Below are positions 15,982 through 63,810 of a stretch of DNA of 64,000 nucleotides, one piece after another (within the stretch, counting starts at the first letter, position 1; every line of letters begins with the position of its first letter). A model generated the notes under the pieces. That model saw nothing but the letters and a program-made list of their open reading frames with translations. It was not told where the DNA came from and searched no databases. The translations under genes and the position numbers were made by a program. Origin of the DNA: an uncultured Actinomycetes bacterium (lineage in GTDB: Bacteria > Actinomycetota > Acidimicrobiia > Acidimicrobiales > Ilumatobacteraceae); NCBI GenBank assembly GCA_963802395.1, contig CAWDIP010000005.1, positions 851,363 through 915,362 of the forward strand. The letters are read 5' to 3'.

Positions 15982-16023
15982 GTGTGCTCCGTTCCTGGGG
16001 CGAATAGCTGGGTCGACGGATGG

Positions 16024-36436: not shown

Positions 36437-38755
36437 GTGGCACGACCAACCGAGCCGAGCGCGGGAGCATCGGGCTCTCATCGCGACGCGATCAGTGCCG
36501 CGGCGCGAGTCGCCTTGGCGACCCTGTGGGCGCTGACCATCCTCTACACCTGGTCGGTGCTGTACGTCTCGCGGCCCGAATCGGGATACAGCACTTTGTG
36601 GGAAGGCGTGGTGGCCAAGGTCCTGTACGGCGGCGCCGCGCTCATCGTCTTGATCCGGGCGACCCGGTTTCGTCGCCAACGCGCCGGCCAACTTGCGCTC
36701 GGACTCGGGTTGACGTCGAACGCGTTTGCTGACCTCTGGTACACGTTCTACGAGCAGAACCTCGATCCGATTCCGTTTCCGGGCTACTCCGATGTCCCTT
36801 ACCTGCTCACCTACGCCGGCTTGGCCGCCGGAGTCGTACTGATCTTCCAGGCCCAACAGCGCCGCAACACCGCCATGATCCTCGACGGACTCATCGTTGC
36901 ACTCGGGTCTGCGGCGGCGGCCGCCCCGTTCGTCTTCCAACCAGCACTCGCTGTCTCGGGCAGCCCGGCGCAGGCTGCGGTCGGACTCGCGTATCCGCTC
37001 CTCGACCTCTTGATCATGATCCTGTTGGTTGCGTCCGTCGCGTCCAACGGCCATCGACCGTCTCCGTCGGCCTTGTGGCTCGCCGCCGGCGTACTCGCGT
37101 TCGGCGGAGGTGACATCGCCTACCTGACCGCGGTCGAAGCCGAGACCTATCTTCCCGGCACGCTGATGGACGTCACCTGGATCGTCGGGGTGATGTGCTT
37201 GGCCACGGCCGCCTGGTCGCGCACCGCCGTCCGTGGTGGGTCGGGCGGCGACACCCACATGAGCCTCTCGCTGTTGCCTGTGATCGGCGCGACCATCGCG
37301 CTCGTCGTTCCGACGATGCAGATCTTCCTCCATGTGCCGCCCATCGCGATCGTGCTCGCGGTGCTCACCGTCACGGTGGTTCTCATCCGCCTGGCGTTCT
37401 CGTTGCGCGATGTCCGCCGATTGCTCGTGGTCTCGCGGCAGGCCCGGACGGACGAGCTCACCGCACTACCGAACCGGCGAGGATTCTTCGAGCTTCTCGA
37501 CCGTTGTCTGCTCGAGCGATCCGGACTGGCGGTGCTCCTGTTCGATCTCGACGGGTTCAAGGAGATCAACGACTCGCTCGGTCACGCCGCGGGGGATGAG
37601 CTCCTTCAACGGTTGTCCACCCGCGTCAGCAATCGGATGCCCGCCGGCACACACTTCGCTCGGCTCGGCGGCGACGAGTTCGCAGCCATCTTGCCGGTGG
37701 GGAACGAGACCGCGGCGTTCGAGGTCGCCACCGCGCTGGCCGGTTGGTTCCGCGAACCTGTCGCTGTGGAAGGAGTACCGGTCAGGGTGGGCGCGTCGTG
37801 CGGCGTCGCGCTCGCCCCGCTCCACGGAACAGCTCGTAGCGACTTGCTCCGGGCCGCAGACGTCGCCATGTATCAGGCCAAGCGCACCCTCACCGGTGGG
37901 GTGATCGTCTACCAGACCGACGCTGATCCCCATGATCGTGACCGACTGCAGCTCCTGGAGGAGTTCCGGGTGGCGCTCGATGCCCAGGAGTTCGTCCTCC
38001 ACTATCAACCGCTCATCTCCTTCGCCGACGGATCGGTCTCCGGCGTCGAGGCACTCGTCCGCTGGGCCCACCCGACCCATGGTCTGCTGGCGCCGCTGTC
38101 TTTCATTCCTCTCGCCGAGCGCGCCGGCCTGCTTCCACGCCTCACGCGGATCGTGGTGGAACAGGCCGTCGCCTTTGCCTCGACGTTCGGCACTGCTGAC
38201 GGTGATCTCGCGGTCAGTGTGAACATCTCGGTGCAAGACCTGCTGGACGAGGCCCTGCACCATGCGGTCACTTCGGCGCTCCAACGCCATGGAGTGGACG
38301 GTCGGCGACTCACGCTCGAGATCACCGAAGACGCACTCGTTCGCGACCCTGAACGGGCCCGCCGGCTCCTGCGCCCGTTGCGGGTTCTGGGAGTTCGGGT
38401 TGCGGTCGACGACTTCGGCACCGGCTACCAGTCGCTCGGTCAACTCCTCGCGCTGGACATCGACGAAGTGAAGCTCGACCGCTCGCTGGTCGCCGATGTC
38501 GCCGACAACCCGCGTTCACAGGCGGTGGTTCGAGCCATGGCGTCGCTCACCCGATCGCTCGGGCTGGACCTCGTCGCCGAAGGCATTGAGACCAGGGAAG
38601 CCCTTCAACAGCTGCGCGAGCTCGGCTGCACCATTGCCCAGGGCTTCTTCCTCGCCCGACCGCTGCCCGGCAACGATCTCCATGCCGAGATCGAGCGGCT
38701 GATTGCTGACGACCCGATGGGTCACCGCGTCACCTCGGGCGGCCCGGCTCGCTGA
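36437..38755 (+). CDS. integral-membrane sensor GGDEF-EAL c-di-GMP signalling protein
   Basis: Intact 772 aa. About 8 N-terminal TM helices (a MASE-like sensor), GGDEF with RLGGDEF, and EAL (EALVRW...EITED...DDFGTGYQSL...KLDRSLV). Confidence 0.85.
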   Translation: MARPTEPSAGASGSHRDAISAAARVALATLWALTILYTWSVLYVSRPESGYSTLWEGVVAKVLYGGAALIVLIRATRFRRQRAGQLALGLGLTSNAFADLWYTFYEQNLDPIPFPGYSDVPYLLTYAGLAAGVVLIFQAQQRRNTAMILDGLIVALGSAAAAAPFVFQPALAVSGSPAQAAVGLAYPLLDLLIMILLVASVASNGHRPSPSALWLAAGVLAFGGGDIAYLTAVEAETYLPGTLMDVTWIVGVMCLATAAWSRTAVRGGSGGDTHMSLSLLPVIGATIALVVPTMQIFLHVPPIAIVLAVLTVTVVLIRLAFSLRDVRRLLVVSRQARTDELTALPNRRGFFELLDRCLLERSGLAVLLFDLDGFKEINDSLGHAAGDELLQRLSTRVSNRMPAGTHFARLGGDEFAAILPVGNETAAFEVATALAGWFREPVAVEGVPVRVGASCGVALAPLHGTARSDLLRAADVAMYQAKRTLTGGVIVYQTDADPHDRDRLQLLEEFRVALDAQEFVLHYQPLISFADGSVSGVEALVRWAHPTHGLLAPLSFIPLAERAGLLPRLTRIVVEQAVAFASTFGTADGDLAVSVNISVQDLLDEALHHAVTSALQRHGVDGRRLTLEITEDALVRDPERARRLLRPLRVLGVRVAVDDFGTGYQSLGQLLALDIDEVKLDRSLVADVADNPRSQAVVRAMASLTRSLGLDLVAEGIETREALQQLRELGCTIAQGFFLARPLPGNDLHAEIERLIADDPMGHRVTSGGPAR

Positions 38756-38796: not shown

Positions 38797-39351
38797 GTGA
38801 CCACGCTCGCCGAACGATACCGCCGACTCGCCGACCACTTCAGCACCGTGGTGAACGCCGTTCCCGACGATCGCTGGGAAGCTGCGTCGCCGTGCGCTGA
38901 CTGGAAAGCGATCGACATCGTCGAACATGTCGCCGAGACCGAACTCGAGTTCCTCCGGCGCATGGCGTTCGCCGACGGACTCCCCGCCGAGCTTCCCGCC
39001 GCTGCGGTGGAGCGCTGGGTGCTCGTTCGGGAGGCGGCGCAATCGGTGCTCGACGATCCCAGTCGTGCCGACCGGACCTACGACGGGTTCTTCGGCCCGA
39101 CAACGGTGGCGAGCACGATCGACCAGTTCTATTCGATGGACCTGTGCGTCCACACGTGGGACCTCGCTCGCGCCGCAGGGCTCTCCCATCTCGAGCCGAT
39201 CGACCCGGTAGAGATGCGGACGATACGAGCCGCGTTGGCGGGGCTCGGCGAGGGCCTCCGTCAACCGGGCGTCATCGGCCCCGAAGCAGCGGTACCGGAC
39301 GACGCCGACGAGCAGACCAGGTTCCTGGCGTGGCTCGGGCGCCGCGCCTGA
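38797..39351 (+). CDS. DinB/YfiT-like (TIGR03086 / mycothiol-maleylpyruvate-isomerase N-terminal domain family) protein
   Basis: Intact 184 aa. AVPDDRWEAASPCADWKAIDIVEHV...FYSMDLCVHTWDLARAAG. A paralog lies at 49819..50412. Confidence 0.7.
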   Translation: MTTLAERYRRLADHFSTVVNAVPDDRWEAASPCADWKAIDIVEHVAETELEFLRRMAFADGLPAELPAAAVERWVLVREAAQSVLDDPSRADRTYDGFFGPTTVASTIDQFYSMDLCVHTWDLARAAGLSHLEPIDPVEMRTIRAALAGLGEGLRQPGVIGPEAAVPDDADEQTRFLAWLGRRA

Positions 39352-39377: not shown

Positions 39378-40142
39378 CTACTCGACCCCTGCCGCTGACT
39401 CGCCGAGGTACGCCGCGATCACCCGCGGATCCGCGCGCACCTCGGCCGGGGTGCCAGCGGCGATGATCGTTCCGAAGTCGAGCACGTAGAGGTAGTCGCA
39501 CACGTTCAGTACGAGTCCCATGTCGTGATCGATCAGGAACAGGCTGATGCCATGCTCGAGGAACGCTCTGAGATGTCCGCCCAAACGCCGGCTCTCGGCA
39601 GTGTCCAGGCCGGCCGCCGGCTCATCGAGCAGCATGAGCTTGGGTCGGGCGGCGAGCACCCTCGCCACGCTGACCAGCTTGCGGGTGCCGTGATCGAGCT
39701 CGCTCGGCAACGCCCCGAGCACTTCGGTCAACCCCATCAGCTCGAGCGCCCAGTCGACCTGCTTCGCCGCTGCTCGGTCGCGTCGAGTGGGGGCCACGAT
39801 GTCGAGCGCGAACGTGTACCACCTTGATCGCTCGACCCCGACCAACAGGTTGTCGCGTACGGTCAGGTCGTCGAACAGCTCCAACGACTGGAAGGTCCGG
39901 GCGAGCCCTGCGAGCGCACGAGCGTCAGGACCCAGGCCGCCGATGTCGTGGCCGTCGAAGGTCACCGTGCCACCGGTCAACGGGGTGAAGCCGGTGATCG
40001 CGTCGATGAAGGTCGTCTTGCCGGCACCGTTGGGCCCGATGAGTCCGACGAGCTTGCCCTGATGGCAGTCCAGATCGATGGCATGGTTGGCGTACACGCC
40101 GCCGTACTTGACCGTCAGCCCACGAGTTTCGAGCAGGGCCAT
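39378..40142 (-). CDS. livG: branched-chain amino acid (Liv-type) ABC transporter ATP-binding protein
   Basis: Intact 254 aa. Walker [16 protein letters not shown] insert, LSGGQ-like and DEPAAGLD motifs give the LivG pattern. Confidence 0.8.
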   Translation of the reverse strand: MALLETRGLTVKYGGVYANHAIDLDCHQGKLVGLIGPNGAGKTTFIDAITGFTPLTGGTVTFDGHDIGGLGPDARALAGLARTFQSLELFDDLTVRDNLLVGVERSRWYTFALDIVAPTRRDRAAAKQVDWALELMGLTEVLGALPSELDHGTRKLVSVARVLAARPKLMLLDEPAAGLDTAESRRLGGHLRAFLEHGISLFLIDHDMGLVLNVCDYLYVLDFGTIIAAGTPAEVRADPRVIAAYLGESAAGVE

Positions 40143-40167
40143 CGAGTCCTCCCGTTCGAATCGACGG

Positions 40168-41526
40168 TCACGTCATGATGCGATCCGGCACCCAGCTGCC
40201 ATGAGCCCCGTACGGCACTCGGCGAGGCAGGTGGACCGTTGCCACGGGCGGTGCGGCGAAGTTCTGCGCGTCGATGATGAGCAACCGGGACTCATCGGTG
40301 GTGGTGTCGTGGGAGAGGCTGATCACCCAACCTTCGTCCTCTCCGGCAACGTCCGAGGCTGGCGCGAACACCGGCTCGGCACCCCGAACACCTTCGCCGA
40401 GCTGGTGTTCCCAACACGCCCCGGACCGGAGGTCGTACTTCCAGAGCGCAGAGCCGTAGACGGGCTCCGCGCTGTCGCCCTCGCCCGCCATGGCCATCAG
40501 GTACCCGTACCGCGCGTCAAGGCCGATGAGCCGATCGTCGACCCGTCCGAAGTCCCCCGGACGATCATCGATCTGCTCCTCGGTCACCGTGCCGGCATCG
40601 AGGTCGATCGTCCAGCGCCACAACCTGCCGACCTCGGCGTAGTCGTCGTTGCTGGTGCCGAACGCCTCTCGCTGCCGCGAGACGTGGATCACGATGGTGT
40701 TGCCCACTTCGTGGGCGTTGACGGGGTGGAAGACGTAGCACGGGTCGATCTCGAACCAGCGGACATCGGCGTTCGTGCCGTGGCGCGGCATCACCCCCAG
40801 CCGGGCGCCGGCGTCGCGGTTGAACTTGAACGGGAGACCGGTGGCGAGCGAGTCGAAGTCGAAGCACACGGGCAGGTCCATGAAGATCACGTGATGCTCG
40901 GTGACGTTGAAGTCGTGCATCATCACCATGTTGGGAAGATCGATGCCCTCGAGCTGCTTCAACACTCCGTCCGCGCCGATGCGGATGTAGTGGAGGTATG
41001 GACGCTCCGAGCTGAGGTAGCTGAAGGCGATGAGCTCGCCGGTGATCGGGCACACCTTTGGATGCGCCGTCATCGAACATGTCAGCGCACCGCCGTAGTT
41101 CTGGTACCCGAGCGTGTTCAGCTCGCGGTCGACCTTCCACGGCCAATGCCCCTCCTCGAGGCACAACAGCTCACCGTTGTGGAGGACCACGTGGGTGTTG
41201 CCGGTGCCTCGTGTCAGGTCGCCGACGTTCGACATGACGTCGCCGCGCGGGTCGGTGATGTTGGGGGTCTGCACGAAGCGGTTCCGATACCACTCGGCCT
41301 TTCCGCCCGCGAGGCGTACTCCGTGGAGCATGCCGTCCCCGAAGAACCAGTGCGCGGACGTGCCCGACGCCGGGTTCGGACCAGTTCGGACGTAGGTACC
41401 GACGAGCTCGGGCGGAATGACGCCATCGACTCGAAGGTCGAAGTCCGTGCGCTCGTCGAGCACCGGGGCCCAGTTGTCCTTCAGATGCCAGGGAAGACCG
41501 GTGCGGATCGCCGTTTCTGCGCTCAT
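40168..41526 (-). CDS. carotenoid cleavage oxygenase / lignostilbene-alpha,beta-dioxygenase family protein
   Basis: Intact 452 aa. YVRTGPNP...HWFFGDGMLHGV, the four-His iron ligand pattern (TAHPK, MMHDFNVTEHHVIF, FHPVNAHE) and the C-terminal HGSWVPD match the CCD/RPE65 family. Confidence 0.8.
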   Translation of the reverse strand: MSAETAIRTGLPWHLKDNWAPVLDERTDFDLRVDGVIPPELVGTYVRTGPNPASGTSAHWFFGDGMLHGVRLAGGKAEWYRNRFVQTPNITDPRGDVMSNVGDLTRGTGNTHVVLHNGELLCLEEGHWPWKVDRELNTLGYQNYGGALTCSMTAHPKVCPITGELIAFSYLSSERPYLHYIRIGADGVLKQLEGIDLPNMVMMHDFNVTEHHVIFMDLPVCFDFDSLATGLPFKFNRDAGARLGVMPRHGTNADVRWFEIDPCYVFHPVNAHEVGNTIVIHVSRQREAFGTSNDDYAEVGRLWRWTIDLDAGTVTEEQIDDRPGDFGRVDDRLIGLDARYGYLMAMAGEGDSAEPVYGSALWKYDLRSGACWEHQLGEGVRGAEPVFAPASDVAGEDEGWVISLSHDTTTDESRLLIIDAQNFAAPPVATVHLPRRVPYGAHGSWVPDRIMT

Positions 41527-41558
41527 GTGACCAACGTAACGCGAACGGGAGAGGGACG

Positions 41559-43514
41559 CTATGGGGACCGACGGGCCACGATTCGTCGTAGCACGCCACG
41601 CGGTGCACCGACGATCCCCTGCGGGAACCTCACGGCCGCGACCATCAACACGATGCCGTTGACGGCGAATTGATAGCTCGATGCGTTGTCGCTGACGGCG
41701 TCGAGGGAGACGGTCAACAGTCCGCCGGCACCCAACACACCCGCGACCACGGCGCCGATCGGCGTAGCGATGCCCGCCAAGTACGCCAAGGCGACTGCGG
41801 TCAGCGAGTCGAACACGCCGAACGAACTCGACGACACAATGGTCCGGCTGTACGCCAGCAGTACCCCGGCGATACCCGCCAGGGTGCTCGACAGGGCGAA
41901 CGCCGACAGCTTCACCCGGGCGACCGATATCCCAGCCGCGGCAGCTGCCCGCTCGTTGGCTCGAACCGCGAGCCAACGCCGACCCGTCGCTCCGCGACGC
42001 AGGTTGGCGACGACGACGAGCGATGCGGCGGCGCACACCAACGTCATCGCCACGAAGGTGCGCCGCGGGAACGCGTCGCCGATCGCCGACACCCCGAGGT
42101 CGATACCGAACAGCGTCGGTGACTCGGTGACCGCGCCTTCGAACCCTCCCGTGAACCACGACCACTTGAAGGCCAGCTCCTCGACCGCCACTGCAGCCGC
42201 CAGCGTTGCGATCGCGAGGTTGAGGCCCCGAACGCGAACTGCCGGAAGCGCGGCGACCTGGCCAGCCAGTACCGCGACGGCAACCCCAGCGACGGGTGCG
42301 ACGGGGAACGGCAGCCCGAGATCGGCGGTGAACCTGACCATGCTGAACGCGGCGATTCCCGCGACCGCAAATGTCGCCAACGAGATCTGGCCGACGTACC
42401 CGGTGATCACCACGACCGACAGCGCGACGATCGTCGAGATCGCGGTCGTGATGATCCCCGATCGCCAGTCGGAGCCGACGAACACCGTCGCGACGACGCC
42501 GACGATCAGGAGGACCGTCGCCACTGCTGGTACGTGCCGCGTGTCGGCGGCGGAAGCCAACCGAGGTCCGGCGATGGCCGATCGGTCGGGCAGCACTTCG
42601 CCGCGGACTGCCAAGGTCACGAGCACCACGAGCAGCGGAACACCCTGCTGGAGCCCGATCCGTGGCAACCATTCCCATTCGCCCTGCAGACTCAGGATCT
42701 CCGACTGCGCCATGCCGATCGCAAAGCCGGTGGCGACAGTTGCCCACACCGAGTTGAACCGTCCGGGAAGCGCTGCGGCCACAGCGGGAACGATCAGCAG
42801 GCTGGTGGTCGAGGGATCGAGCCTGATCACCGGCGCGGCGAGGATGACTGCCGCCGCCGCGAGCATCGAGGCGATCATCCAATTGACGACGCCGACGGCG
42901 TTGGGCGAGATGCCCATCAGGACCGCACCGCGTTCGTTCTCGGCAACTGCACGGGTGGCGAGACCCAAGCGAGTGAAGCGATAGCCCAGCGCGAGCACCG
43001 CGGTCACCGCGACCACGATGACCGCGAGGAGATAACGGTCCGCCGGGACTCGCAGGCTGCCGACTTCGACGATGTGGTCGGGGAGCGGTCCGTCGATGAC
43101 CAACGCGACCGCACCCCTCGTCCCGAATCGCAGGCCGACGATGGCGATCAGGTAGACGAACAATCCGAGCGACGCCACCATTCGAGCGAGTGCCGGAGCG
43201 CTGCGCAACGGCCGGAAGACCACGGCGTAGATGAGGGCGCCGCACGCCGCGGCGAGCACCAGGCACATCACGAACGCCGTTGCCACGGTGGGCCGGGGAA
43301 CGGGGGAAACCCGAGCCGGAAGCCCGAGGATCGGCAGCACCAGTTCACCCGACGAGCGCAGCTCGTAGTAGACGAACGCGACGTACATGCCCAACGAGAC
43401 ATGAGCGAAGTTGATGACCCGGCTGGCGCGGTGGGCCACGACGACTCCCACGCCGAGCGCGGCGATCACCGCGCCGCTCCCGAGTCCCACGATCAGGGAC
43501 GTGAGATGGTTCAC
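41559..43514 (-). CDS. fused LivH-LivM type branched-chain amino acid ABC transporter permease
   Basis: Intact 651 aa, about 18 TM helices in two LivH/LivM-like halves. Confidence 0.8.
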   Translation of the reverse strand: MNHLTSLIVGLGSGAVIAALGVGVVVAHRASRVINFAHVSLGMYVAFVYYELRSSGELVLPILGLPARVSPVPRPTVATAFVMCLVLAAACGALIYAVVFRPLRSAPALARMVASLGLFVYLIAIVGLRFGTRGAVALVIDGPLPDHIVEVGSLRVPADRYLLAVIVVAVTAVLALGYRFTRLGLATRAVAENERGAVLMGISPNAVGVVNWMIASMLAAAAVILAAPVIRLDPSTTSLLIVPAVAAALPGRFNSVWATVATGFAIGMAQSEILSLQGEWEWLPRIGLQQGVPLLVVLVTLAVRGEVLPDRSAIAGPRLASAADTRHVPAVATVLLIVGVVATVFVGSDWRSGIITTAISTIVALSVVVITGYVGQISLATFAVAGIAAFSMVRFTADLGLPFPVAPVAGVAVAVLAGQVAALPAVRVRGLNLAIATLAAAVAVEELAFKWSWFTGGFEGAVTESPTLFGIDLGVSAIGDAFPRRTFVAMTLVCAAASLVVVANLRRGATGRRWLAVRANERAAAAAGISVARVKLSAFALSSTLAGIAGVLLAYSRTIVSSSSFGVFDSLTAVALAYLAGIATPIGAVVAGVLGAGGLLTVSLDAVSDNASSYQFAVNGIVLMVAAVRFPQGIVGAPRGVLRRIVARRSP

Positions 43515-43556
43515 CGAACGCTCCAGTGGCCCGATCGGTGCAACCGAACCGCCCGG

Positions 43557-45089
43557 CTAGCCAAGTGCGGCTGCGTAGAGATCGTCGGTCTCGATCCAGC
43601 CGCCGGTCGCTTCGAAGCCCTCGGGGAGGAAGACGAAGGGGTCGCCGGGCACGCCGGTGGTGGTGAACAGGCTCTGCTCCGGCGCGCAGAGCGCCGGGAG
43701 CCCCGGTATCCGTTCCCCGTCGCACGTGTACGAGTGACCCCAGAACGACGGACGGTCGACGGCGTCGCTCACCAACGCAGTGATGGCCGCGGAATCGATG
43801 TTGTCAGGACCCAACTCGACCAGCAGTGAGTACAGGTTCATGAACCCTCGGAACCCCACCGTTCCGGCAGCGCCTGCCGGTTCGACCGCGTACCGATCCA
43901 CGACGGCGTTGAAGATGTCACCCTCGATCACGTCGACGTCCGACGGGCCCTCGCTACTGAAGATGACCCCTTTGGCAGCGTCGCCGGCGGCCTCGAGGAT
44001 GGTCGTGGCCGCGCACGCCCCTACGAGGTAGATCTGGGCGGTCAGCCCGAGTTGCACCGCGCCTTCCATGACGGGCACGCAGGCTGTGTCGGCTGCTGCG
44101 ACGATGAGCGCGTCGACCTCGGCGTTGGTGGCCGCCGTGAGCACTTGCAGCATGTCGGCCCCCACGATGGGGAACGGCTGGAGCTCGACTCGCAAACCGA
44201 GCGATTCACCGACGGCCGCGGCGAAGTCCCTGGCCGTCACCGTGAACGACTCGAACTCGCCGTAGGCGATCATCACGCTCGTCGCTCCGTGCTGGGCGGC
44301 GTGGGCGAGCATGGCTGCCATCCCGCCCGCCGTCCCTCCGGAGAAGTAGAAGTTCGTCGCGGACTGCTGCTCGACCAGGTTGGCCGGGATGCCACCGATT
44401 GCCGGAATGCCGTTCTGCTGGAGCACGGGAATCGATCCGTTGCTCGTGACATCGATGCCACCGACCACGGCGACCACACCCGCCTGCACCATGTCCTGAG
44501 CGCATGCCTGGGACTGCTCGACGCTGAAGCTGGTGATGCACGGGACGATCTCGATCGGCCGACCCTCGACCCCCCCGAGCTCGGCGTTCACCCATGCAGC
44601 AGCGGCCTGCACCGCGCCGCGCAACTCGGGGAACGAGCCGAGCGGCGTGTTCTCCTGGTTGATCATGCCGATCTTGATGGGCTCGGCATCGGGATCGGCT
44701 GCTTCGGCCGCTGCGGGCACCTCGCCCAGGAACCACGGCTCACCGCGGAAGGCGGAGACCACCGACCCGTCGTCGCTCGGTTCGTTCTCGGTCGTGAGCG
44801 TGGTGTCCTCGGGGCTGACCGATGGCGCCGCCGTCGTGACTGGGCTCACCGCAATGGTCGGTTCGGATGCCGTGGTCGCCCCCGAGGTCCCTGGGCTCGC
44901 CTCGGGCTCGGCAGCCTCGCTGCACGCGGCCCCTGCGATGACGGTCGCCAACGCAACGGCAAGGCAACGCCTCGACGAAGAACGTCCCAGAGCCCAACCC
45001 ATACTCAACCCCCCGAGGTCGACGGACGGGCGAATGATTGCAGGTGTGGGAGCAGTGACGTGCAATTGCAGCCACGAGCCGCTCGTCAC
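43557..45089 (-). CDS. Liv-type ABC transporter periplasmic substrate-binding lipoprotein
   Basis: Lipobox AGAACS, a PT/S-rich linker, then a type-I PBP fold (IKIGMINQENTPLGSFPELRGA...). The true start is possibly M at 45002. The 45089 start would overlap the livF stop. Confidence 0.8.
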   Translation of the reverse strand: MTSGSWLQLHVTAPTPAIIRPSVDLGGLSMGWALGRSSSRRCLAVALATVIAGAACSEAAEPEASPGTSGATTASEPTIAVSPVTTAAPSVSPEDTTLTTENEPSDDGSVVSAFRGEPWFLGEVPAAAEAADPDAEPIKIGMINQENTPLGSFPELRGAVQAAAAWVNAELGGVEGRPIEIVPCITSFSVEQSQACAQDMVQAGVVAVVGGIDVTSNGSIPVLQQNGIPAIGGIPANLVEQQSATNFYFSGGTAGGMAAMLAHAAQHGATSVMIAYGEFESFTVTARDFAAAVGESLGLRVELQPFPIVGADMLQVLTAATNAEVDALIVAAADTACVPVMEGAVQLGLTAQIYLVGACAATTILEAAGDAAKGVIFSSEGPSDVDVIEGDIFNAVVDRYAVEPAGAAGTVGFRGFMNLYSLLVELGPDNIDSAAITALVSDAVDRPSFWGHSYTCDGERIPGLPALCAPEQSLFTTTGVPGDPFVFLPEGFEATGGWIETDDLYAAALG

Positions 45090-45814
45090 CCCGGAGCGGT
45101 CGCTCCCAGATAGCTCACTGCCAGGAGTTCCGGCTGTCGGGACAACTCGCGCGCATCACCCTCGAGCACCAGTTCACCGTGGTTCATCAGGTACGCACGA
45201 TCAGCGACGCCCAGGGCGAGATGCACGTGCTGTTCGACGACCAGGACCCCGACACCGGATCGGTCCGCGACATCGCGGACGATCGGCAGCAGTCGTTCGA
45301 CGATGATCGGCGCCAGACCGAGACTCATCTCGTCGACCAGCAGCAGCTTCGGCTCGGCGACGATCGCCCGGGCCACGGCCAGCATCTGCTGCTCCCCACC
45401 CGACAACAAGCCGGCCCGCCGGTTCATGAGTCGTCCCAACTCGGGGAAATGCGTCACCGCCGTGTCGAGCGCCTCGGATCGTGCGGACCGCCTGCCCCGC
45501 AACCCGAGACGAAGGTTCTCGCGCACGGTCAGGTCGAAGAACAGCGAACGATCCTCCGCGACATGACCGATCCCGCGCCGAGCGTTCCGGAACGGTGTTC
45601 GGAGATCGACGGCTCCGCCGAGGGCGACGATCGAGCCGGAGAGCACCGGAAGGAGCCCCGAGATCGCCCGGAGTGTCGTGGTCTTCCCGGCGCCGTTCGG
45701 TCCGAGCAGGGCAACGACCTCCCCAGCCGCGACTTCGAGCGTAACGCCCCGAACGACCGGCACGCCGCCGTACCCGGTGAACAAGTTGTCGACCGATAGC
45801 ACCACCTCGCCCAT
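45086..45814 (-). CDS. livF: Liv-type ABC transporter ATP-binding protein
   Basis: Walker [21 protein letters not shown], Walker [12 protein letters not shown]. The start is chosen at [11 protein letters not shown]. Confidence 0.8.
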
Positions 45815-45941
45815 GACATGCTCCGTTTCGGTTGTTCGGGGGGGACCCGAGCAACAGCCGGTGTCACCCAGGCGGCGACGCCCGGGGTCGGCCGGAGCAT
45901 CAGAGCGCGGCCCGCCGCCGCGATCGCGGGAGAATCCCCTC

Positions 45942-46958
45942 ATGAACCTCGACAAGTTCGACCGCTACCCGCTGACCTTCGGCCCGACGCCGATCGAGCA
46001 CCTGCCCCGTCTGACCGAGGCGTTGGGTGGCACGGTGCAGATCTACGCGAAGCGCGACGACTGCAACTCGGGCCTGGCGATGGGTGGCAACAAGTTGCGC
46101 AAGCTCGAGTACATCGTCCCGGATGCGATCAAGTCCGGCGCCGACACCCTCGTGTCGATCGGCGGCGTGCAGTCCAATCACACGCGCATGGTGGCCGCGA
46201 CGGCCGCCAAGATCGGCATGAAGTGCGTCGTCGTGCAAGAGAAGTGGGTGCCGCACTTCGATGCGGTGTACGACCGCGTCGGCAACATCCTGATGACCCG
46301 CCTCATGGGTGCCGACAGCAGGCTGGTCGACGACGGTTTCGACATCGGCATCCGCAAGAGCTGGGAGGACGCGATGCAGTCGGTACGCGACGCCGGAGGC
46401 GTGCCGTACGGCATTCCGGCGGGCGCATCGGTCCACCCGTACGGCGGCCTCGGGTACGTCGGCTTCGCGGAGGAGGTTCGCGACCAGGAACGGGATTTGG
46501 GCTTCCGGTTCGACTACATCATCGTGTGCGTGGTCACGGGTTCGACCCAGGCCGGGATGATCGTGGGCTTCGCGGCCGATGACCGCGCCGATCGGGTGAT
46601 CGGCATCGATGCCTCGGGCACGGTGGAACAGACCCGCGCCCAAGTTCGCCAGATCGTCGACGGCACCGCCGAGCTCGTCGAGTTGGGTCGCCCGATCCGT
46701 GACGACGAGATCGTCATCAACCCCGACTACGCCTACCCCGCGTACGGCGTGCCCTCCGATGAGACCAACGACGCCATCCGCCTCGCCGCCCGGACCGAGG
46801 CGATGATCACCGACCCGGTCTACGAGGGCAAGTCGATGCAGGGCATGATCGACCTCACCCGCAAGGGGTTCTTCCCCGAGGGTTCACGGGTCCTCTACGC
46901 CCACCTCGGCGGCGCGCCGGCCCTCAACGGCTACAGCTACTACTACAAAGACGGCTGA
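45942..46958 (+). CDS. acdS: 1-aminocyclopropane-1-carboxylate deaminase (PLP-dependent; ACC deaminase/D-cysteine desulfhydrase family)
   Basis: Intact 338 aa, near-collinear with characterised AcdS: [21 protein letters not shown]...[28 protein letters not shown]...[15 protein letters not shown]...VTGSTQAGM...[17 protein letters not shown]. Confidence 0.75.
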
Positions 46959-46967
46959 CCCACCGGG

Positions 46968-47456
46968 TCAGGACATGAGCGCGATCAGTTGGTCGAGCGC
47001 CGCGCCCCACCCCTCGTGGAAGCCCATCTCCTGGTGGCGCCGGCACCCGTTCTCGTCGGCGTGGATGGCCACGGCCCGGTAGTGCGTGCCACCGTCGGCA
47101 CTCGGCGTGAGCTCGATCCTGGCGGTGAACGGCAGGTCCTCGGCGCCGTTGGTGGGAGCGACCGGGCGGAAGCCCTCGGTCATCACGCTGGTGAAGACCA
47201 ACAGGCGGTGCGGGTCGACCACGAGGTAGCAGCCGGCGTTGGGGTACTGCTCGCCCTCGGGCGACTCCATGGTCGTGACGCAGCGCCCCCCGACGCGCAG
47301 GTCGACATCGGCGGCGACCGTCTTCCAAGGGGCCGGGGTGAACCACTGAACGATCAACTCGGGATCGGTCCATGCCGCCCACACCCGGTCGGGCGGTACC
47401 GGGATGGTGCGCTCGAGGACGAGGTCGAGATCGGGGGTCGGCGTGAAGTCGCTCAT
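46968..47456 (-). CDS. SRPBCC-superfamily (Aha1/activator-of-Hsp90-ATPase-like domain) protein
   Basis: About 162 aa. LVLERTIPVPPDRVWAAWTDPELIVQWFTP is a typical AHSA1/SRPBCC N-terminus. Confidence 0.65.
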   Translation of the reverse strand: MSDFTPTPDLDLVLERTIPVPPDRVWAAWTDPELIVQWFTPAPWKTVAADVDLRVGGRCVTTMESPEGEQYPNAGCYLVVDPHRLLVFTSVMTEGFRPVAPTNGAEDLPFTARIELTPSADGGTHYRAVAIHADENGCRRHQEMGFHEGWGAALDQLIALMS

Positions 47457-47560: not shown

Positions 47561-49660
47561 TCAGGCGACGCGGAGCACTGAAGGGTACGTCGCGGTGCCG
47601 TAGGCGAGCCAGAGGTGGCCCTCTGCGCTGTCATCGGACGCCACCTTCAGCACGAGGCTCCTACCGGCCGCGATTGTTGCGTCGATCGCGGGCAGGGCGA
47701 CCGAGATCATCCCGAACGCCGCTCCGAAGCTCTCCTGGTCGAAGGAAGCCCCGGCGCTCGACAGCAACGTGCACGAACTGCCGAAGAAGCTGCAGTCGTA
47801 CAGGCCGACCTCCACTGCACCGCGCAGGGGCTTGAAGTCCCACGTCGCGACCCATAGGTCGAGCGTCGGTGTGCCTGTGACTCGGGTCGCCGACACCATC
47901 GGGGTCCACCACCGCTGCATTCTCGTTGCATCGGTCTCGGTCAACCCGGCGCCGTTCTTGAAGAGCAGGCCGGGATCGCTGTCGCGGTCCGCGTCGTAGT
48001 TCGGAAGTGGTCCATCGAGCAGAGTGCCGCCGAGCGGCAGGAACGGGACGGAGAACGTCACCAACCCCCTCCCGAGGTTCCACGTGAGCGGTGAAGCGGG
48101 CTGCGCAGCGGGCGGCGGCACTGGGATCGTCGGCACGGTGGTGGCGGGCGGCGCCGCCGGTACGGGTACCGGTGCGGCCGTCGTCGGTGCAGTGGTCGGT
48201 GCGGAGGTCGTACTGGGTGCGGCTGGTGGGGTAGTCGTCACGACGAACGGCTCGGTCGTGGCCGGTTCGATGAGCGGGGCGGCGGGGATTCCGCCGCCAG
48301 GCGACTCGGTCGGCACCTCGACGAAGGCCGTCGTGGCGGTGGGAAGTCCAACGGCGTCGGGCAGGGCGGCGACCTCGCCGAAGTTCGCAGCAGGAAGCTC
48401 GTCACCGGTCGGCGGGACCGTGGAGATGTCGACCATCGGGAGAAACAGCGTCGTAGCCGATTCCGCGATGGTGTCGTCGGCCGGGAGTCCGGCGGAGATC
48501 TCGACGACCGGTGGTGGCTCGGTTACCGGCACCACGGCAGCGGCGCCGGTTGCGGCGGCGATCGAGACCGCCGCAGCGCCGACGAGGCTGGTGCCCGAGC
48601 TGGTGGCCATGGTCATCGGTACCCGCATGATCTCGGGGACGTGCGCCATCCACCCGAGCGCGCCAGCGATCCAGCGCTCCTTGCCGAGTGAGATCTCGAG
48701 GAAGCTGCGCACGAGCACGGGGTCGAAGTGCGTTCCGGCGCATCGCAGCAGCTCGGCGCGAGCTTGGGCTGCCGGGAGCGGAGCTTTGTAGCTGCGGGTC
48801 GCGGTCATCACGTCGTAGGCGTCGCACAGGGCCACGATCCGGGCTCCGAGTGAGATCTCGGCGCCCGTACGCCCGTTGGGATAGCCGGTTCCGTCGAACC
48901 GCTCGTGGTGGTGGGTCGCGGCTTCGATCCAGTCCCCGAGCCAGGGCCGCAGGGTTTCGACGTACTGCTCGGCGGCCCTCGGATGGCCCCGAAGCACCTT
49001 CCATTCCTCATCGGTCGGCCGGCCGGCCTTGTTGAGGATCTCGGCTGGCACGGACAGCTTGCCGACGTCATGAGCGAGGGCGGCCCAGTTGAGCTTGTCC
49101 AGGTCGTCGGCACTGAGCCCGATCTGCTGGCCCAGCATCACCGAGTATCCCCGTACCCGTTCGGAATGCCCCCGGGTGAGACGGTCGTGGCGCTGCATCC
49201 GGGCCATGATCCCCACGAGCACCTCCGCCGCGACCTGTTCGGGGCTGGTCGGCGCCCCCCCGCCGGCCGCCGATTCCTTCAGGGATCGGGCGAGCGAACG
49301 AGACGAACTGGCTCGCATCGCAGTTCGGAAACGCGAGGGCGCCCTGTCGGGAAAGACGAGCGACATCTGGAACAGCGCGGCCAGAGGAACCACGCGCCGG
49401 GCCAGCCGCTGCGCACCGATCGAGGACGACATCGACACACCGATCAGGAGCGCCATCCAGGCGACGAACGGGCCCGCCCCGGCCGGCCGAGCCACGACGC
49501 TCGCCACGACCCGAACTGCGAGCACGCCGGTGAGCAACGGCACGAGGAACGCACCGACCCTGATCGCCAGGCTCACACCCTTTCGGGGCGTCCAGGCACG
49601 CTGTTCGAGCGTGTCGGCCTGGGACGAGGCCGAACCTGATGTTGTGCCAGGTCCCATCGC
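47561..49660 (-). CDS. membrane-anchored HD-GYP c-di-GMP phosphodiesterase with Pro/Thr-rich linker and C-terminal domain of unknown function
   Basis: HD-GYP core: HSERVRGYSV...LAHDVGKLSVPAEILNKAGRPTDEEWKVLRGHPRAAEQYV...HHERFDGTGYPNG. About 4 N-terminal TM helices. A 150-aa PT-rich tract, then about 200 aa with no recognised family. The start is approximate (track start 49837). Confidence 0.75.
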   Translation of the reverse strand, partial: AMGPGTTSGSASSQADTLEQRAWTPRKGVSLAIRVGAFLVPLLTGVLAVRVVASVVARPAGAGPFVAWMALLIGVSMSSSIGAQRLARRVVPLAALFQMSLVFPDRAPSRFRTAMRASSSRSLARSLKESAAGGGAPTSPEQVAAEVLVGIMARMQRHDRLTRGHSERVRGYSVMLGQQIGLSADDLDKLNWAALAHDVGKLSVPAEILNKAGRPTDEEWKVLRGHPRAAEQYVETLRPWLGDWIEAATHHHERFDGTGYPNGRTGAEISLGARIVALCDAYDVMTATRSYKAPLPAAQARAELLRCAGTHFDPVLVRSFLEISLGKERWIAGALGWMAHVPEIMRVPMTMATSSGTSLVGAAAVSIAAATGAAAVVPVTEPPPVVEISAGLPADDTIAESATTLFLPMVDISTVPPTGDELPAANFGEVAALPDAVGLPTATTAFVEVPTESPGGGIPAAPLIEPATTEPFVVTTTPPAAPSTTSAPTTAPTTAAPVPVPAAPPATTVPTIPVPPPAAQPASPLTWNLGRGLVTFSVPFLPLGGTLLDGPLPNYDADRDSDPGLLFKNGAGLTETDATRMQRWWTPMVSATRVTGTPTLDLWVATWDFKPLRGAVEVGLYDCSFFGSSCTLLSSAGASFDQESFGAAFGMISVALPAIDATIAAGRSLVLKVASDDSAEGHLWLAYGTATYPSVLRVA

Positions 49661-49818
49661 AGTGCACATCGGCACACCGGTCAGTCGGCTCAAGGCCGCG
49701 TCGAGCAGCTTCACGGAATCCACACCGGGATGCGAGCATCGCCATGCCGTGATCCAACGGACGCGTGTCCGGTCCACCGGCGACGCGCCGCATGACCCGA
49801 ACGAGGAAGGTCGCATCC

Positions 49819-50412
49819 ATGAACCACGAGATCCCACCCACTCCAGCGGCCGCTCGTCACCGGTGGGTCGCCGCGGCGTTCACCGATCGGGTGCGTCACG
49901 TCGAAGACACCGCGAGCTGGGACGCGCCGACACCCGTTGCCGCTTGGGTGGCGCGAGATGTCGTGGGCCACCTGGTCGAGTGGTTTCCGCCGTTCCTGGC
50001 CGCGGGAGGCGGCGAGCAGCTGCCAGCCGGTCCCGCAGTCACTGAAGATCCGATCACCGCGTGGGTCACGCAGTGCGATGCGATCCAGGCGCTCCTCGAC
50101 GACCCAGAGGCCTCGGCGCGTGAGTTCAGCCATCCGATGCTCCCACCGCTCCCCTTGGCCGATGCGATCGACCGCTTCTACACCGCCGACGTGTTCATGC
50201 ACACCTGGGACCTGGCCCGGGCCACCGGACAGGACGACACACTCGACGACACGTTCTGCCAGGAGCTGCTCACGGGCATGGAGCCGATCGACGACGTCCT
50301 GCGGCAGTCAGGCCAGTACGGCCCCCGAGTCGCCGTCGCCGACGATGCCCCCGTCCAACACCGGCTCGTCGGTTTCATCGGCCGCGACCCGAACTGGAGC
50401 CCAGCACAGTAG
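49819..50412 (+). CDS. DinB/YfiT-like (TIGR03086 family) protein, paralog of 38797..39351
   Basis: 197 aa. VAAWVARDVVGHLVEW...FYTADVFMHTWDLARATG has the same architecture as the 38.8-kb paralog. Confidence 0.7.
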   Translation: MNHEIPPTPAAARHRWVAAAFTDRVRHVEDTASWDAPTPVAAWVARDVVGHLVEWFPPFLAAGGGEQLPAGPAVTEDPITAWVTQCDAIQALLDDPEASAREFSHPMLPPLPLADAIDRFYTADVFMHTWDLARATGQDDTLDDTFCQELLTGMEPIDDVLRQSGQYGPRVAVADDAPVQHRLVGFIGRDPNWSPAQ

Positions 50413-51785: not shown

Positions 51786-54333
51786 ATGCTGCTCCGGAAT
51801 GCTCGTGGGGGGCCAGGTGCGACGGTGCTGAGCATGACCGGCTGGAAAACGACGGTGACCGCCAGGTCTGAGCTCAAGAACCTGGCGAAGGCCGCCGAGC
51901 TCTACACGCGCGTTCGGGTACGGACCGACGGGACCAGTGTTGCCGGAGCGGGTGACCCCGACCCGATTCACATGTTCAAGCTGTTCAACCTGTCGGGCGT
52001 CGACTACAAGGGGCAACTGTCGAGCGGCTACGGCGCGGGCGGGTTCGGCGTCAACGTCACGACCGGAATCGATCTCGGTTCGGTTCTCGGCCCTGGTCTC
52101 ATCACCCTCAAAGCGATCATCAAGGGCGGCGGAGTTCGAGCGGATCACACGCTGCTCGTCTGCACCCGATTCCCCATGGCGCTGTACGAGAACTCGATCA
52201 CGAGCCTCGCACTTCCGCCCGGCGTGCCGCGCTGGAGAACTTCGAAACCGCTCGTCCTCGCCGTGCTGCATGGTGTCGCGTGGCAGGGAACGCTCGAGAC
52301 GAACGCGACCGCGGCCATCGGGGTTCCCGATGCCATCCAGACCGACGAGTTCGGACTCGGCATCGCTGCCGAGGCATCGGCCACGGCCATCGGCGACGTC
52401 CGCATCGTCGCGCTGGTCGACCGTAACGCCCGCGTCTTCGACGAGCGCCCGGGCTCCAGCCGTGTCGTCACCGCAGGAGCGGGCGCCGCCACGGCCTACG
52501 ACGGCAGCCTCGCCGAAGCCGTCGACTTCGCCCTCATCGGCGATCTCAAACAACGTGTGGCCCGCTGGATCATCGCGAGTTGGGCGGAGCGAGACTTCAA
52601 CCATCGCACACCCATCGTCATCGAGCTCCTCGTCGTCATCGAGCTCCTCGTCGTCATCGAGCTCCTCCTCGTCGAGCGGGTCGGCGCGGATGCAGCGCAT
52701 CCGCAGAGATCTTGCGGAGTTCGGCATCGGCTCCGACACCGACCCGGAGACGAACGCGGGGGATATGGACGCTGCGGAGTTCGAAGCCTTCGAGGTCGAT
52801 GACTCGCGTCCAGGCGAGACCGCGATCGATGAACCCGGAGCCGAGGAGCCAAGAACCGACGACGAGAGCACCTCGTTCCTCGGCGACCGCGCCAAGTCGT
52901 TGCTCGGAGACAAGGCCAAGTTGATCGAGTCCGAACCGGTCAAGGACGCCATCACCAAGGTCAAGGAGTGGTTTCGCTCGAGGAAGGGGACAGAGAAGCT
53001 GCAGTCGAGGCTCGACGACCTCAGGTCTGTCCTCGTACTCGAACAGGACTCCGCCGCCCACCTTGCCACGCTCGAGCAGTTCAGCCAGGCCCTGGGCGAG
53101 CGCGAGATGGCGAAGGGGAATGCGAAACGGGCGGCAAGAGCCGCAGGCGGATGGAACAACCTGGTCAAACGGATGAACAGCTCCACCGCCCCACCGGCCG
53201 TCCTACGACTCAGCTCGCGCACGTTCACCGGCAACCTTCATGGCTCCACCGGCATCGAGATCGGCAGCCTCAAGAAGCAGCTCGATCTCCACGGCGAGGG
53301 AGACCTCGACTACCTCCGCAAGTGGGTGAAGTACCGCTTCCAGATCCCGGCCGCCAAGGGCCGCGACCACCTGGTGATGACCCAGGACACCGTCGTCAAC
53401 CATCACCTGTTCACCGCCAAGGTTGCCGGAAAGGCATCGTTCGGCGACCGCTCCGTCAAGCCGCCGGTAGACGACGAGAAGGAGGCCGAGGCGCAGGACG
53501 AGGAGAAGGCAGAGGACGAGGAACAGGCGCCCGACAAGAAGGAGCTGGGATCGGGTGGGCGGTCCAAGACCTACGGCACCATCACCTATCGCTCGGCGAC
53601 CACGTACTGGCTGGCGTCGGACAAGTCGACACTGGCGTACCCGAATGGCAGCGGTGTGAGCTTCGGCCTTTCGATCAGCGCCGACCGCCTGCTCGACTAT
53701 GCCGCCTGGTGCGCGGCGCATCCCGACATCGGGCCCGATGACGACGCACTGAAGAAGACCGAGGGCTACCTCTCGTCGCAACTCCGGGTCGAGACCGCCT
53801 CGCTTCGCAAGTTCTTCGCCCGTTTTCAGTTCGAGGCAGGCCCGAAGCCCGACACGGACGGCGAGATTTCCGGCAAGCACCTACCGGAGGTCGCCCGGCC
53901 GCTGCTGGTGGAGTCCTCGTTCGCATTTCGTGAGACGACACCGCTCGTGATGCGCCCGGGAGCGCGACAGGAACCGGAGGATCTGTTCGAGAAGCATCAG
54001 CCGACCAGGGACCGTCTGGAGAAAACCGATCCAGGTGAGCTGGCGAACTCGTCGCTCCAGGCGCTGCGAATCCGTTACCCGCTCGGCGAAGCGGAGAACG
54101 CCACGAAGCTCTATTCGATCGGGATCAACTTCCTGATCGTCGCGTCGGTTGCGGCCGGGCGGGTCAGCGAGGTCGGCTCGGTCGGTTCGTTCGACCTCCA
54201 CACCGAGTTCTTCCCCGATCTGATCAAGGCGCCACCGGCCGACAAGACGGCGCGGCGCCAATGGGAACGCGACTACGTCTCGCAGTTCGAATTCGCGGTG
54301 CCACCGGTCGCATTGTTCGGCGACACGTCGTGA
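51786..54333 (+). CDS. large hypothetical protein A (~850 aa as reconstructed): N-terminal beta-rich domain, poly-Ser linker encoded by an 18-bp tandem repeat, acidic disordered region, C-terminal helical domain; no family recognised. A frame change lies inside the repeat.
   Basis: Frame 1 reads coherently 51786-52620 (...LIGDLKQRVARWIIASWAERDFNHRTPIV). Frame 2 reads coherently from the poly-Ser through 54333 (SSSSSSSSSSSSSSSSSGSARMQRIRRDLAEFGIGSDTDPE...FEFAVPPVALFGDTS). The start codon choice (ATG 51786 or 51834) is uncertain. There are no enzymatic or NTPase motifs. Confidence 0.5.
52613..52672. repeat. 18-bp tandem repeat CATCGAGCTCCTCGTCGT x3 (plus partial unit); encodes poly-Ser in one frame, IELLVV in another, and DDEEL on the opposite strand
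   Basis: Direct repetition seen at 52619-52636, 52637-52654 and 52655-52672 (the third unit has one substitution). It coincides with the frame switch in protein A. Confidence 0.7.
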
Positions 54334-57300: not shown

Positions 57301-57930
57301 CTCCCCGACCCAACTGCGATCCATTCGACTCGCTCCGTCAGCGGGATGGTTTCGATGCTGGTGCCGGACGGGTCGTCGGGCACTTGGTGGGTGATCAATC
57401 CGTCGGAGTTCGCGATGGAGGTGTCCACCGCGATTCCCGCCGGGCGGTGCACGTTCGGCGACACGTGCATGACCAGCGATCGTGACCCGATCGGGATCGC
57501 CCCGATGAACCGGCTCGACGGGGTGACCTCAGAGCTGCGCGTCGCGGTCCAACGCCGCATCGAGGCGACGTGGCGAGATGTCTCCGACGAGTTCAGCACC
57601 ACTGCCGTTCACAGCCGCTTCCCGTCGGCCCTCTGGGGCACGACGTTTCAACCCACGCTCGATCAAGTCGGCGACACCGTCTCGGCAATCGGGGGCCTGA
57701 TGATCGCTCTCGGCCAGGGGATGCACGTCCAACGTGGCAATGCCGAGCCTCGGGGGATTGCCGGCTTCGCCGACGGCAACGTGATCGACCTCCCGCGCCA
57801 ACCGTGGCCCGACGTCGGCGATTGGGCACTCCCCGGTGACGTCTCCGGAGTGCCGTGGTTCAGCGACCACCTCGGCGATCTCGGGTTTTCCGCCGCGCGA
57901 TCTGTCGGTCGGTCCCACGTTCGGCGATGA
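54330..57930 (+). CDS. large hypothetical protein B (~1200 aa; Gly/Leu-rich DLGLG-type repeats, beta-rich); one frame disruption near 57065-57085; no family recognised
   Basis: GTG 54330 overlaps the TGA of protein A (GTGA). A coherent ORF runs to ~57070, where the translation degenerates into Arg-rich junk. A coherent continuation sits in the adjacent frame (EPYHYSIDAHLDIYARWKCFSTHASATLSINGPELAGYARVSWSVFDFDIHFGTS...) through 57930. Confidence 0.55.
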
Positions 57931-57978
57931 CATCCCGTTCGAGCGTCCGGGACTCGACAACCAGGGGCAAGGCTGCTG

Positions 57979-62900: not shown

Positions 62901-63810
62901 GATCGCCGTGGTTCGCGCCCGACTGGATCTGCAGTTGCTCGGACGACCCGCGTGCGACCAATCGTGGGAGCATCTCCGCCATCGCTTGTTGGGCAGGCCG
63001 CCGAGCGATCACGGCTTCACCGAGGTCGAATTCGCGGTGCGGATCGGTGAACACCAACAGTCGAACGATGGCACGGTTGGCTATTGGGTGACCGACGGCG
63101 CCGGGCGACTCACCGGCCGGCACCTGCGTTTCACTCACGACGAAGGACCCCCGACCGCGATGCTCACGTTGGCGGGAGCCCCGATCGACCTCACCGTGCT
63201 GCTCGACCCGCGTGCGGTGATGCACGTGACGTCGGGCGTGCTGCCTACGACATCGATCGGGATTCCTCCCGCACTGTGGGCCCCGGCGCTCGATGGCCTG
63301 TCGGCGTCGTTCCTCTCGGCGCCGATCCTGATGCCTGCCGAGGAGATCGCCGTCCCACTGCCTCGCGAGCCGAGCTGCTCGTGGTCCTGGTCGCAACGGG
63401 TGGGCGGCCGCTGGATCGAGGTGGCTGACCGGCCGACGGTGGAGTACTCGGCGATGCTCGACGCCTTCCCGGAGCCAGGCAGGGCCCAAGCGGTGTGGCA
63501 GACTGCGCTGCGGACTCGAGTGCTCGAACCCGACCCGACCCACCCTGCTCGTGCGCTGTTGTCGCTCGACGCGTCGAACATGCCGAAGGGGTCGGGCGCC
63601 GACGGCCCGAAGCCCGCGACACTCGACGAGGACACGCTCCACGCGCTCCACCGCATCGCCACCTACATCCGCCCGGCGCTCATCGAGGCCACGTTTGGCA
63701 AGCCGGCCGTGATCCGCGAGGGTTGGCTGCAGCTACGCAGCACCTTCGCCGACGGCACCCGAACGCCGCCGCATGCCCAAACGGCCAACGACTCATCGGA
63801 GGGTTTGTGA
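59909..63810 (+). CDS. large hypothetical protein D (~1300 aa); frame disruptions near 60900-60935 and 61555-61570; no family recognised
   Basis: GTG 59909 follows the previous stop immediately, with GGAGG 5 nt upstream. There are three coherent frame segments (59909-~60920; ~60900-~61560 including AAFLAARGTDSVDADVERRITALELAKPIL; 61560-63810). No Walker or HExxH motifs. Confidence 0.55.

Follow-up and report, generated by a model that had tools for sequence, protein, structure and literature searches.

Genes for the deaminase of 1-aminocyclopropane-1-carboxylate (ACC), acdS, are known in an arrangement with a divergent Lrp-type regulator gene, acdR, directly upstream. For many Actinobacteria, a GntR-type regulator, acd-AR, has been described (PMC4048297). 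We analyzed a 64,000-nucleotide stretch, hereafter the window, from an uncultured member of the Ilumatobacteraceae (order Acidimicrobiales; contig CAWDIP010000005.1, positions 851,363 to 915,362), in which acdS is divergent from the genes of a Liv-type ABC importer. Nested among the importer genes is one for an enzyme of the carotenoid-cleavage oxygenase (CCO) family. The importer belongs to the same subfamily as E. coli LIV-I, and the oxygenase has the fold of the lignostilbene dioxygenase LsdA; the locus departs from both, and from described acdS loci, in ways set out below. The best explanation, which we hold with moderate confidence, is that acdS is a stand-alone, horizontally acquired gene that happens to lie beside a conserved uptake-and-cleavage module for an alkene-containing carboxylate.

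The relationship of the importer to the oxygenase is seen in the gene neighborhoods of related genomes. A scan with the solute-binding protein (SBP) of the importer, taking one genome per species, gave 27 loci whose titles are those of Acidimicrobiales-type or unclassified Actinomycetota metagenome-assembled genomes (MAGs). To these we added four contigs with the SBP homologues nearest to that of the window (71-88% identical across the binding domain), for 31 SBP-orthologue loci in all. A metagenome scan with the window CCO yielded 80 CCO-orthologue loci. A CCO gene lies within 8 kb in 20 of 30 SBP-orthologue loci, mostly divergent from the SBP gene; 3 of the 10 loci without one break off a short way upstream of the SBP match. 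The closest relative is L119 (88% identity in both the SBP binding domain and LivHM); there, a CCO paralogue, and not livF or acdS, is found directly upstream of the SBP gene. Approached from the side of the oxygenase, 25 CCO orthologues have at least 74% identity and enough flanking sequence, and 17 of these lie directly upstream of a paralogous SBP-LivHM(-LivG-LivF) set that is encoded on the same strand. Compared with those of the window, the proteins of that set have about 30% identity in the SBP, 40% in LivHM and 60% in the ATPases. The link between CCO and transporter accordingly spans two transporter lineages and three arrangements: divergent, co-directional and, as in the window, nested. 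The CCO is the conserved partner of the transporter and no curiosity inside an importer of amino acids.

No such constancy attaches to acdS. It occurs in none of the 31 SBP-orthologue loci, including that of the closest relative at 88% identity, and in none of the 80 CCO-orthologue loci. Conversely, a Liv system is present in none of nine sampled places harboring an AcdS homologue. Among all loci sampled, the adjacency of acdS and the Liv genes is confined to the window genome.

Several other genes, of a catabolic kind, recur beside the transporter and the oxygenase in the related loci. An AMP-binding acyl-CoA ligase occupies the slot between LivHM and LivG in four of them (L001, L013, L115 and L116). 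Further recurring partners are TetR, acyl-CoA dehydrogenase, SnoaL-like, P450, SDR and luciferase-like monooxygenase proteins and paired Rieske oxygenases. The more distant CCO orthologues (62-71% identity, many on contigs of low G+C) have no transporter and are found beside Rieske, Ltp2/ChsH2-type thiolase, enoyl-CoA hydratase and Baeyer-Villiger-type genes. In some loci, two or three CCO paralogues, 26-50% identical to the window CCO, stand in tandem beside the transporter (L001 16434-20850, L115 681-3620, L043 10049-12802 and L047 5905-8659). Such tandems suggest a family of related substrates.

The importer itself is complete, as the sequence-only reading had described. Its HAAT (Liv-type) components are a Peripla_BP_6 SBP, two BPD_transp_2 domains fused into one permease, and LivG- and LivF-type ATPases. 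Residues 6-273 of the permease are LivH/UrtB-like and residues 325-640 LivM/UrtC-like, both below the equivalog cut-offs. None of the LIV-I equivalog models reaches its cut-off (LivG 203.7 bits against 362, LivF 152.4 against 441, LivH 56.8 against 379 and LivM 94.1 against 366). The livF-like ATPase scores higher as UrtE (206 bits) than as LivF (152 bits), with both under the cut-off, and the SBP matches no NCBIfam family. Since every NCBIfam equivalog cut-off is missed and the SBP has no match at all, the transporter, as judged from these profiles, is not a LIV-I orthologue.

The SBP carries a lipobox-like cysteine (AAC|SE) that is kept in 69 homologues and a low-complexity linker of about 95 residues rich in Pro, Thr, Ser and Ala. 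Its length of 481 residues is repeated in a 100% identical database entry (P0123). An AF2 model (pLDDT 93) has a type-I periplasmic-binding-protein (PBP) fold. We compared this model to the PDB by Foldseek and ran a profile search alongside. By both, the SBP is 14-19% identical to binders of amino acids, of 4-hydroxybenzoate or p-coumarate, of fatty acids, of urea and of amides alike. The label "Liv-type" carries no information on an amino-acid ligand here. Six cysteines in the binding domain (43557-44714) are invariant across the 69 homologues (C59, C71, C212, C234, C331 and C343 in trimmed numbering), and a W-G-H-x-Y-T-C-D segment is conserved at its C-terminus; these may represent disulfides and an extra subdomain.

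The CCO has all four iron-binding histidines, equivalent to H167, H218, H282 and H472 of LsdA, as well as the motifs TAHPK, MMHDF, FHPVNA and AHG and the equivalent of E135. Its top NCBIfam match is the apo-carotenoid 13,14-dioxygenase model NF052295 at 389.5 bits against a cut-off of 675, which makes this the best family but not an equivalog assignment. The lignostilbene dioxygenase models score 238 and 191 bits. The best PDB relatives are a carotenoid 9,10-dioxygenase and the maize NCED, followed by LsdA. In the alignment to LsdA, the segment with Tyr101 is deleted and Lys134 is replaced by Glu; among 101 related CCOs of the fetched loci, 82 show the same. In work on LsdA and NOV1, this pair is the one that binds and activates the stilbenoid 4-hydroxyl. 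Because the pair is missing, a lignostilbene-type activity seems unlikely for the window CCO, and we rejected its reading as a lignostilbene dioxygenase. No signal peptide is apparent by eye, so the CCO should act in the cytoplasm. A role in producing retinal was also considered and is unsupported: neither carotenoid-biosynthesis nor rhodopsin genes were found among the scanned window genes or among the recurring neighbor families of the CCO-orthologue loci.

Two features bear on the ligand of the module. The CoA ligases in the related clusters point to a carboxylate, and the type of oxygenase speaks for a conjugated alkene of apocarotenoid type rather than a 4-hydroxystilbene. We infer an alkene-containing carboxylate as the ligand, one that may be apocarotenoid-like, in preference to ACC or a branched-chain amino acid; the narrower assignment to an apocarotenoid-like substrate is a tentative one. 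In the mechanism we propose, the lipid-anchored SBP would capture a soluble ligand, which the fused permease and the two ATPases would import. The cytoplasmic CCO, a predicted non-haem-iron enzyme, would then act on the imported compound, or on one closely derived from it, by breaking a C=C bond. In the relatives, further processing of the cleavage products would fall to the acyl-CoA ligase, acyl-CoA dehydrogenase and Rieske oxygenases; in the window's genome, the CoA-dependent processing would be encoded elsewhere. AcdS would operate independently as a cytoplasmic pyridoxal phosphate (PLP) enzyme, converting ACC to 2-oxobutyrate and ammonia.

The identity of AcdS is clear in profile and alignment. 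It scores 556.6 bits on the TIGR01274 equivalog model and passes the cut-off of 392; the D-cysteine desulfhydrase models give 210-243 bits, under their cut-offs, and the CuyA model is also under its own. The alignment of residues 1-338 to the enzyme of Pseudomonas sp. ACP (PDB 1RQX/1TYZ; 526 bits) is free of gaps. In the numbering of that enzyme, the PLP lysine K51 and also S78, Y294, E295 and L322 are all kept. E295 and L322 are the residues that separate AcdS from its relatives (PMC4048297). By the equivalog score and these five diagnostic residues, acdS is bona fide at the level of sequence. The sequence-only reading was right that the gene looks genuine and also that the usual divergent Lrp-type acdR is missing. 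A tblastn search of the 64-kb window for an Lrp/AsnC-type acdR, with E. coli Lrp and the AsnC-type regulator beside Roseibium acdS as queries, found nothing better than E = 0.25. Pfam scans of the flanking genes found no regulator abutting the locus; the neighbors of acdS are the livF-like ATPase and an SRPBCC protein.

The closest homologues of the window AcdS are metagenome proteins at 93% identity, followed at 88-92% by proteins of the Alphaproteobacteria Roseibium, Oryzibacter, Aureimonas and Tistlia. The actinobacterial AcdS proteins studied in one paper are reported to share only about 70% identity with beta- and gammaproteobacterial AcdS (PMC4048297). The 93% identical homologues occur in two settings, neither with a Liv system nearby. 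In L110-L114, acdS lies between a pseudoazurin/nirK/Crp group and an alpha/beta-hydrolase gene with infC. In L108 (8775-11017) and L109 (3-1216), acdS follows 24 nt after the end of a permease gene of the BenE family (PF03594) in the same orientation. As a candidate for a transporter linked to acdS, this permease is better placed than the Liv system of the window. Two proteobacterial loci, with AcdS at 92% and 90% identity, have a divergent AsnC/Lrp-type gene 143-158 nt upstream of acdS; an alphaproteobacterial case is L118 (5379-7017).

The AcdS sequence falls in a cluster common to Alphaproteobacteria, and acdS was probably acquired horizontally, minus its Lrp-type regulator. Similarity to other acdS loci ends at the boundaries of the reading frame, with 80-82% nucleotide identity inside it. 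The G+C content at third codon positions (GC3) is 0.91 in the window acdS, like its neighbors there, against 0.68-0.78 in its homologues. Since the GC3 matches that of the host neighbors and the nucleotide identity is down to 80-82%, the transfer is not recent. As judged from these comparisons, it looks like an old transfer between phyla of acdS by itself. Literature searched on acdS in marine Roseibium returned nothing.

The sequence-only reading had proposed that the importer takes up ACC for the divergent AcdS, the pair forming an ACC-scavenging module. In its favor, ACC is an alpha-amino acid and a small one, the range of HAAT systems can be broad, a 127-nt divergent intergenic region is common to both units, and no bacterial ACC transporter turned up in the literature searched, so that the niche is open. 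The proposal is nonetheless not borne out by the neighborhoods described above: all 31 loci with transporter orthologues lack acdS, AcdS homologues at 90-93% identity have no adjacent Liv system, and the closer transporter relatives have CCO or CoA-ligase genes where the window has acdS and the nested CCO. The SBP, moreover, matches no amino-acid-binding equivalog. We regard an ACC importer as highly improbable. It had been reasoned that transporter orthologues consistently linked to branched-chain amino-acid genes would speak against ACC uptake; they are indeed linked to genes other than acdS, but these are CCO, CoA-ligase and oxygenase genes. The wider suggestion of a plant-associated lifestyle module is likewise unsupported, as we found no plant link; every relative is a MAG of Acidimicrobiales type, and TARA and "marine metagenome" entries are among the related contigs. 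As for the suggested cleavage of apocarotenoids or stilbenes, the stilbene half is disfavored by the missing Tyr101/Lys134 pair, and the apo-carotenoid model is the best scoring.

The importer might instead serve amino acids in general, or nitrogen compounds resembling amides or urea, with the CCO nearby as inherited synteny with no functional coupling. Among PDB sequences, the best match, though a weak one, is the amino-acid-binding LivK (3TD9), the ATPases score highest on the UrtD, UrtE, LivG and LivF models, and the source records annotate the homologues as [quoted passage not shown]. We consider this rather unlikely, since those scores are all far under the curated cut-offs, and passive synteny would hardly maintain a CCO link with two paralogous lineages whose SBPs are about 30% identical, in three arrangements. 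The CoA ligases embedded between permease and ATPase genes argue for a carboxylate. In another reading, the module would import lignin-derived or stilbenoid aromatic acids, with the CCO as a lignostilbene or isoeugenol-type dioxygenase. In favor of it are the Peripla_BP_6 binders of 4-hydroxybenzoate or p-coumarate that rank high in both the profile and the fold search (4EVS, 4F06, 4EY3 and 4F8J), the recurrence of CoA ligases and Rieske oxygenases in the related clusters, and the clear PDB match to LsdA (E = 1e-57). It is very unlikely in view of the CCO itself, where the Tyr101/Lys134 pair is missing, as in the 82 of 101 relatives, the apo-carotenoid profile, at 389 bits, outscores the two lignostilbene profiles, at 238 and 191, and the top PDB matches are the carotenoid 9,10-dioxygenase and NCED.

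Returning to the module as an importer and cleavage enzyme for an alkene-containing carboxylate, with acdS an accidental neighbor, several points weigh against it. The fold search with the SBP matches amino-acid and carboxylate binders alike. Near the window operon, gene scans found none of the genes for a CoA ligase, TetR, an acyl-CoA dehydrogenase or a Rieske protein, and the downstream pathway is drawn from the relatives only. The classical CCO substrates are hydrophobic, and no need for an SBP-dependent importer is known for them. In this one genome, the common 127-nt control region could place acdS and the operon under joint regulation. The loci compared are metagenome fragments picked by similarity and hence non-random, and the co-occurrence counts stand without a formal null model. 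A broader reading, which we entertain as a possibility and no further, is that CCO-linked Liv-type importers form an undescribed uptake-and-cleavage system, widespread in Acidimicrobiales, for soluble polyene or apocarotenoid-like carboxylates. It is far less likely that, in the window genome alone, the module was co-opted for ACC.

The layout of the locus is given in Table 1. All six genes were confirmed at or near the coordinates first assigned to them, 39378 and 46958 being precise gene termini. The gene order first given is correct, and an intact CCO-family gene does lie between livG and the permease in the same orientation, with operon-like spacing. In the order of transcription on the minus strand, the genes are livF-like, SBP, fused LivHM, CCO and livG-like, separated by gaps of 83, 42, 32 and 25 nt. 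GC3 is 0.80-0.91 across all six reading frames, and the G+C content of the window is 66-74%. The spacing of 25-83 nt and the uniform GC3 suit one transcript, and livF-sbp-livHM-cco-livG is predicted to be transcribed as such. The livF-like gene has an ATG start with GGAG 9 nt upstream. The 127-nt region between livF and acdS has no sigma-70-like promoter match and no Rfam match, and there are short, weak inverted repeats only. Scans for promoters, terminators, inverted repeats, Rfam families and tRNAs over this region and the whole window gave nothing informative. At its other end, acdS stops 9 nt from a convergent SRPBCC/AHSA1 gene. The hairpin there is a terminator-like match on the minus strand, CTGACCCGGTGGGTCAG, and a weak one, since the regional number of such matches does not exceed the shuffled expectation.

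Table 1. Features of the acdS and importer-CCO locus, in window coordinates.
Feature	Position	Strand	Basis
LivG-like ABC ATPase, last gene of the predicted operon	39378..40142	-	Pfam ABC_tran + BCA_ABC_TP_C; NCBIfam LivG 203.7 bits
CCO family enzyme, 452 aa	40168..41526	-	PF03055 RPE65, E = 8e-112
Fused LivH-LivM type permease, 651 aa	41559..43514	-	two BPD_transp_2 stretches
Lipoprotein SBP, 481 aa	43557..45002	-	Peripla_BP_6 PF13458, E = 1e-32
LivF/UrtE-like ABC ATPase, first gene of the predicted operon	45086..45814	-	ABC_tran
livF-acdS divergent intergenic region, 127 nt	45815..45941	.	read from sequence
acdS, ACC deaminase, 338 aa	45942..46958	+	TIGR01274 556.6 bits
GC-rich hairpin between convergent acdS and SRPBCC stops, candidate shared terminator	46955..46971	.	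terminator-like match

Farther out from the locus, the window encodes two GGDEF-EAL proteins, an HD_5-domain protein, two DinB/MDMPI_N proteins and a sigma-70 factor. The two PAS/GGDEF-EAL proteins and the HD_5 (HD-GYP-like) protein, at 28912-30993, 36437-38755 and 47561-49837, make an unusual local density of genes for cyclic-di-GMP turnover. The DinB/MDMPI_N paralogues (38797-39351 and 49765-50412; same strand, 35% identical) bracket the stretch that takes in the liv-CCO operon, acdS, the SRPBCC gene and the HD_5 gene. The pair comes without long DNA repeats and is thus no sign of a mobile element. Around the block as a whole, we found neither a GC3 anomaly nor long flanking repeats that would indicate a mobile element or a recent insertion. 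A protein of 1074 residues with DUF6603 (54261-57485) is flanked by large open reading frames without a Pfam match (51937-54333, 57979-59793 and 61639-63810), the block running over 51937-63810. An aldehyde dehydrogenase frame at 16515-17447 covers positions 77-294 of the 461 in the Pfam model and overlaps a longer frame on the same strand (15077-16720); this may be a frameshift or a miscalled boundary.

All the parts of the locus are of known families, and acdS is an ordinary member of its own; the conserved association of a CCO with an SBP-dependent importer is what we did not find in the literature searched, where no CCO-linked ABC importer is described. The physiological substrates of most bacterial CCOs are unknown, and a conserved pairing with an importer implies a substrate that is soluble and imported. 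Screening the SBP for ligands would be an easy experimental handle on it. If the broader reading above is true, this would be the first importer that depends on an SBP and is dedicated to the substrate of a CCO, and the SBP would offer a direct route to what bacterial CCOs act on. The system could also bear on the turnover of pigment-derived organic matter by aquatic Actinomycetota. For ACC biology the outcome is mainly negative, in that it would be a mistake to cite the locus as a candidate for a bacterial ACC transporter; its acdS would serve as an example of a single gene moving between phyla with its regulator shed.

The comparison with known systems differs for the two parts of the locus. 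AcdS is like that of Pseudomonas sp. ACP (1RQX/1TYZ) over 338 gap-free residues, with the same five key residues. In proteobacterial acdR-acdS loci, a divergent Lrp-type acdR stands beside genes whose products are 90-92% identical to the window AcdS, and in actinobacterial acd-AR loci, there is the GntR-type regulator; the window acdS has neither, and its host is a member of Acidimicrobiales. The importer shares its ABC subfamily and component set with E. coli LIV-I (LivJ/K-HMGF), but differs in the fused permease, the lipoprotein SBP with its long linker, the gene order and the scores below cut-off. HAAT carboxylate importers, represented by the aromatic-acid SBPs of Rhodopseudomonas palustris (4EVS, 4F8J and 4JB0) and a fatty-acid SBP of Thermomonospora curvata (4N03), have the same type-I PBP fold (TM 0.70-0.75) and a Liv-like architecture as in the window, and the relatives of the window genes stand among CoA-ligase and oxygenase genes. 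Their SBPs are, however, only 14-18% identical to the window SBP, and the literature searched yielded no described system in which the linked enzyme is of CCO type. The CCO resembles LsdA (6OJR) in fold and iron ligands (see the PDB match above), while the Tyr101/Lys134 pair belongs to LsdA and not to the window CCO. It shares the four-His iron site and the four motifs given above with the NF052295 family and with plant CCD1/NCED (9M3E and 3NPE), which are its best profile and PDB matches, and it differs from them in scoring 389 bits against the cut-off of 675 and in lying inside the operon of an ABC importer.

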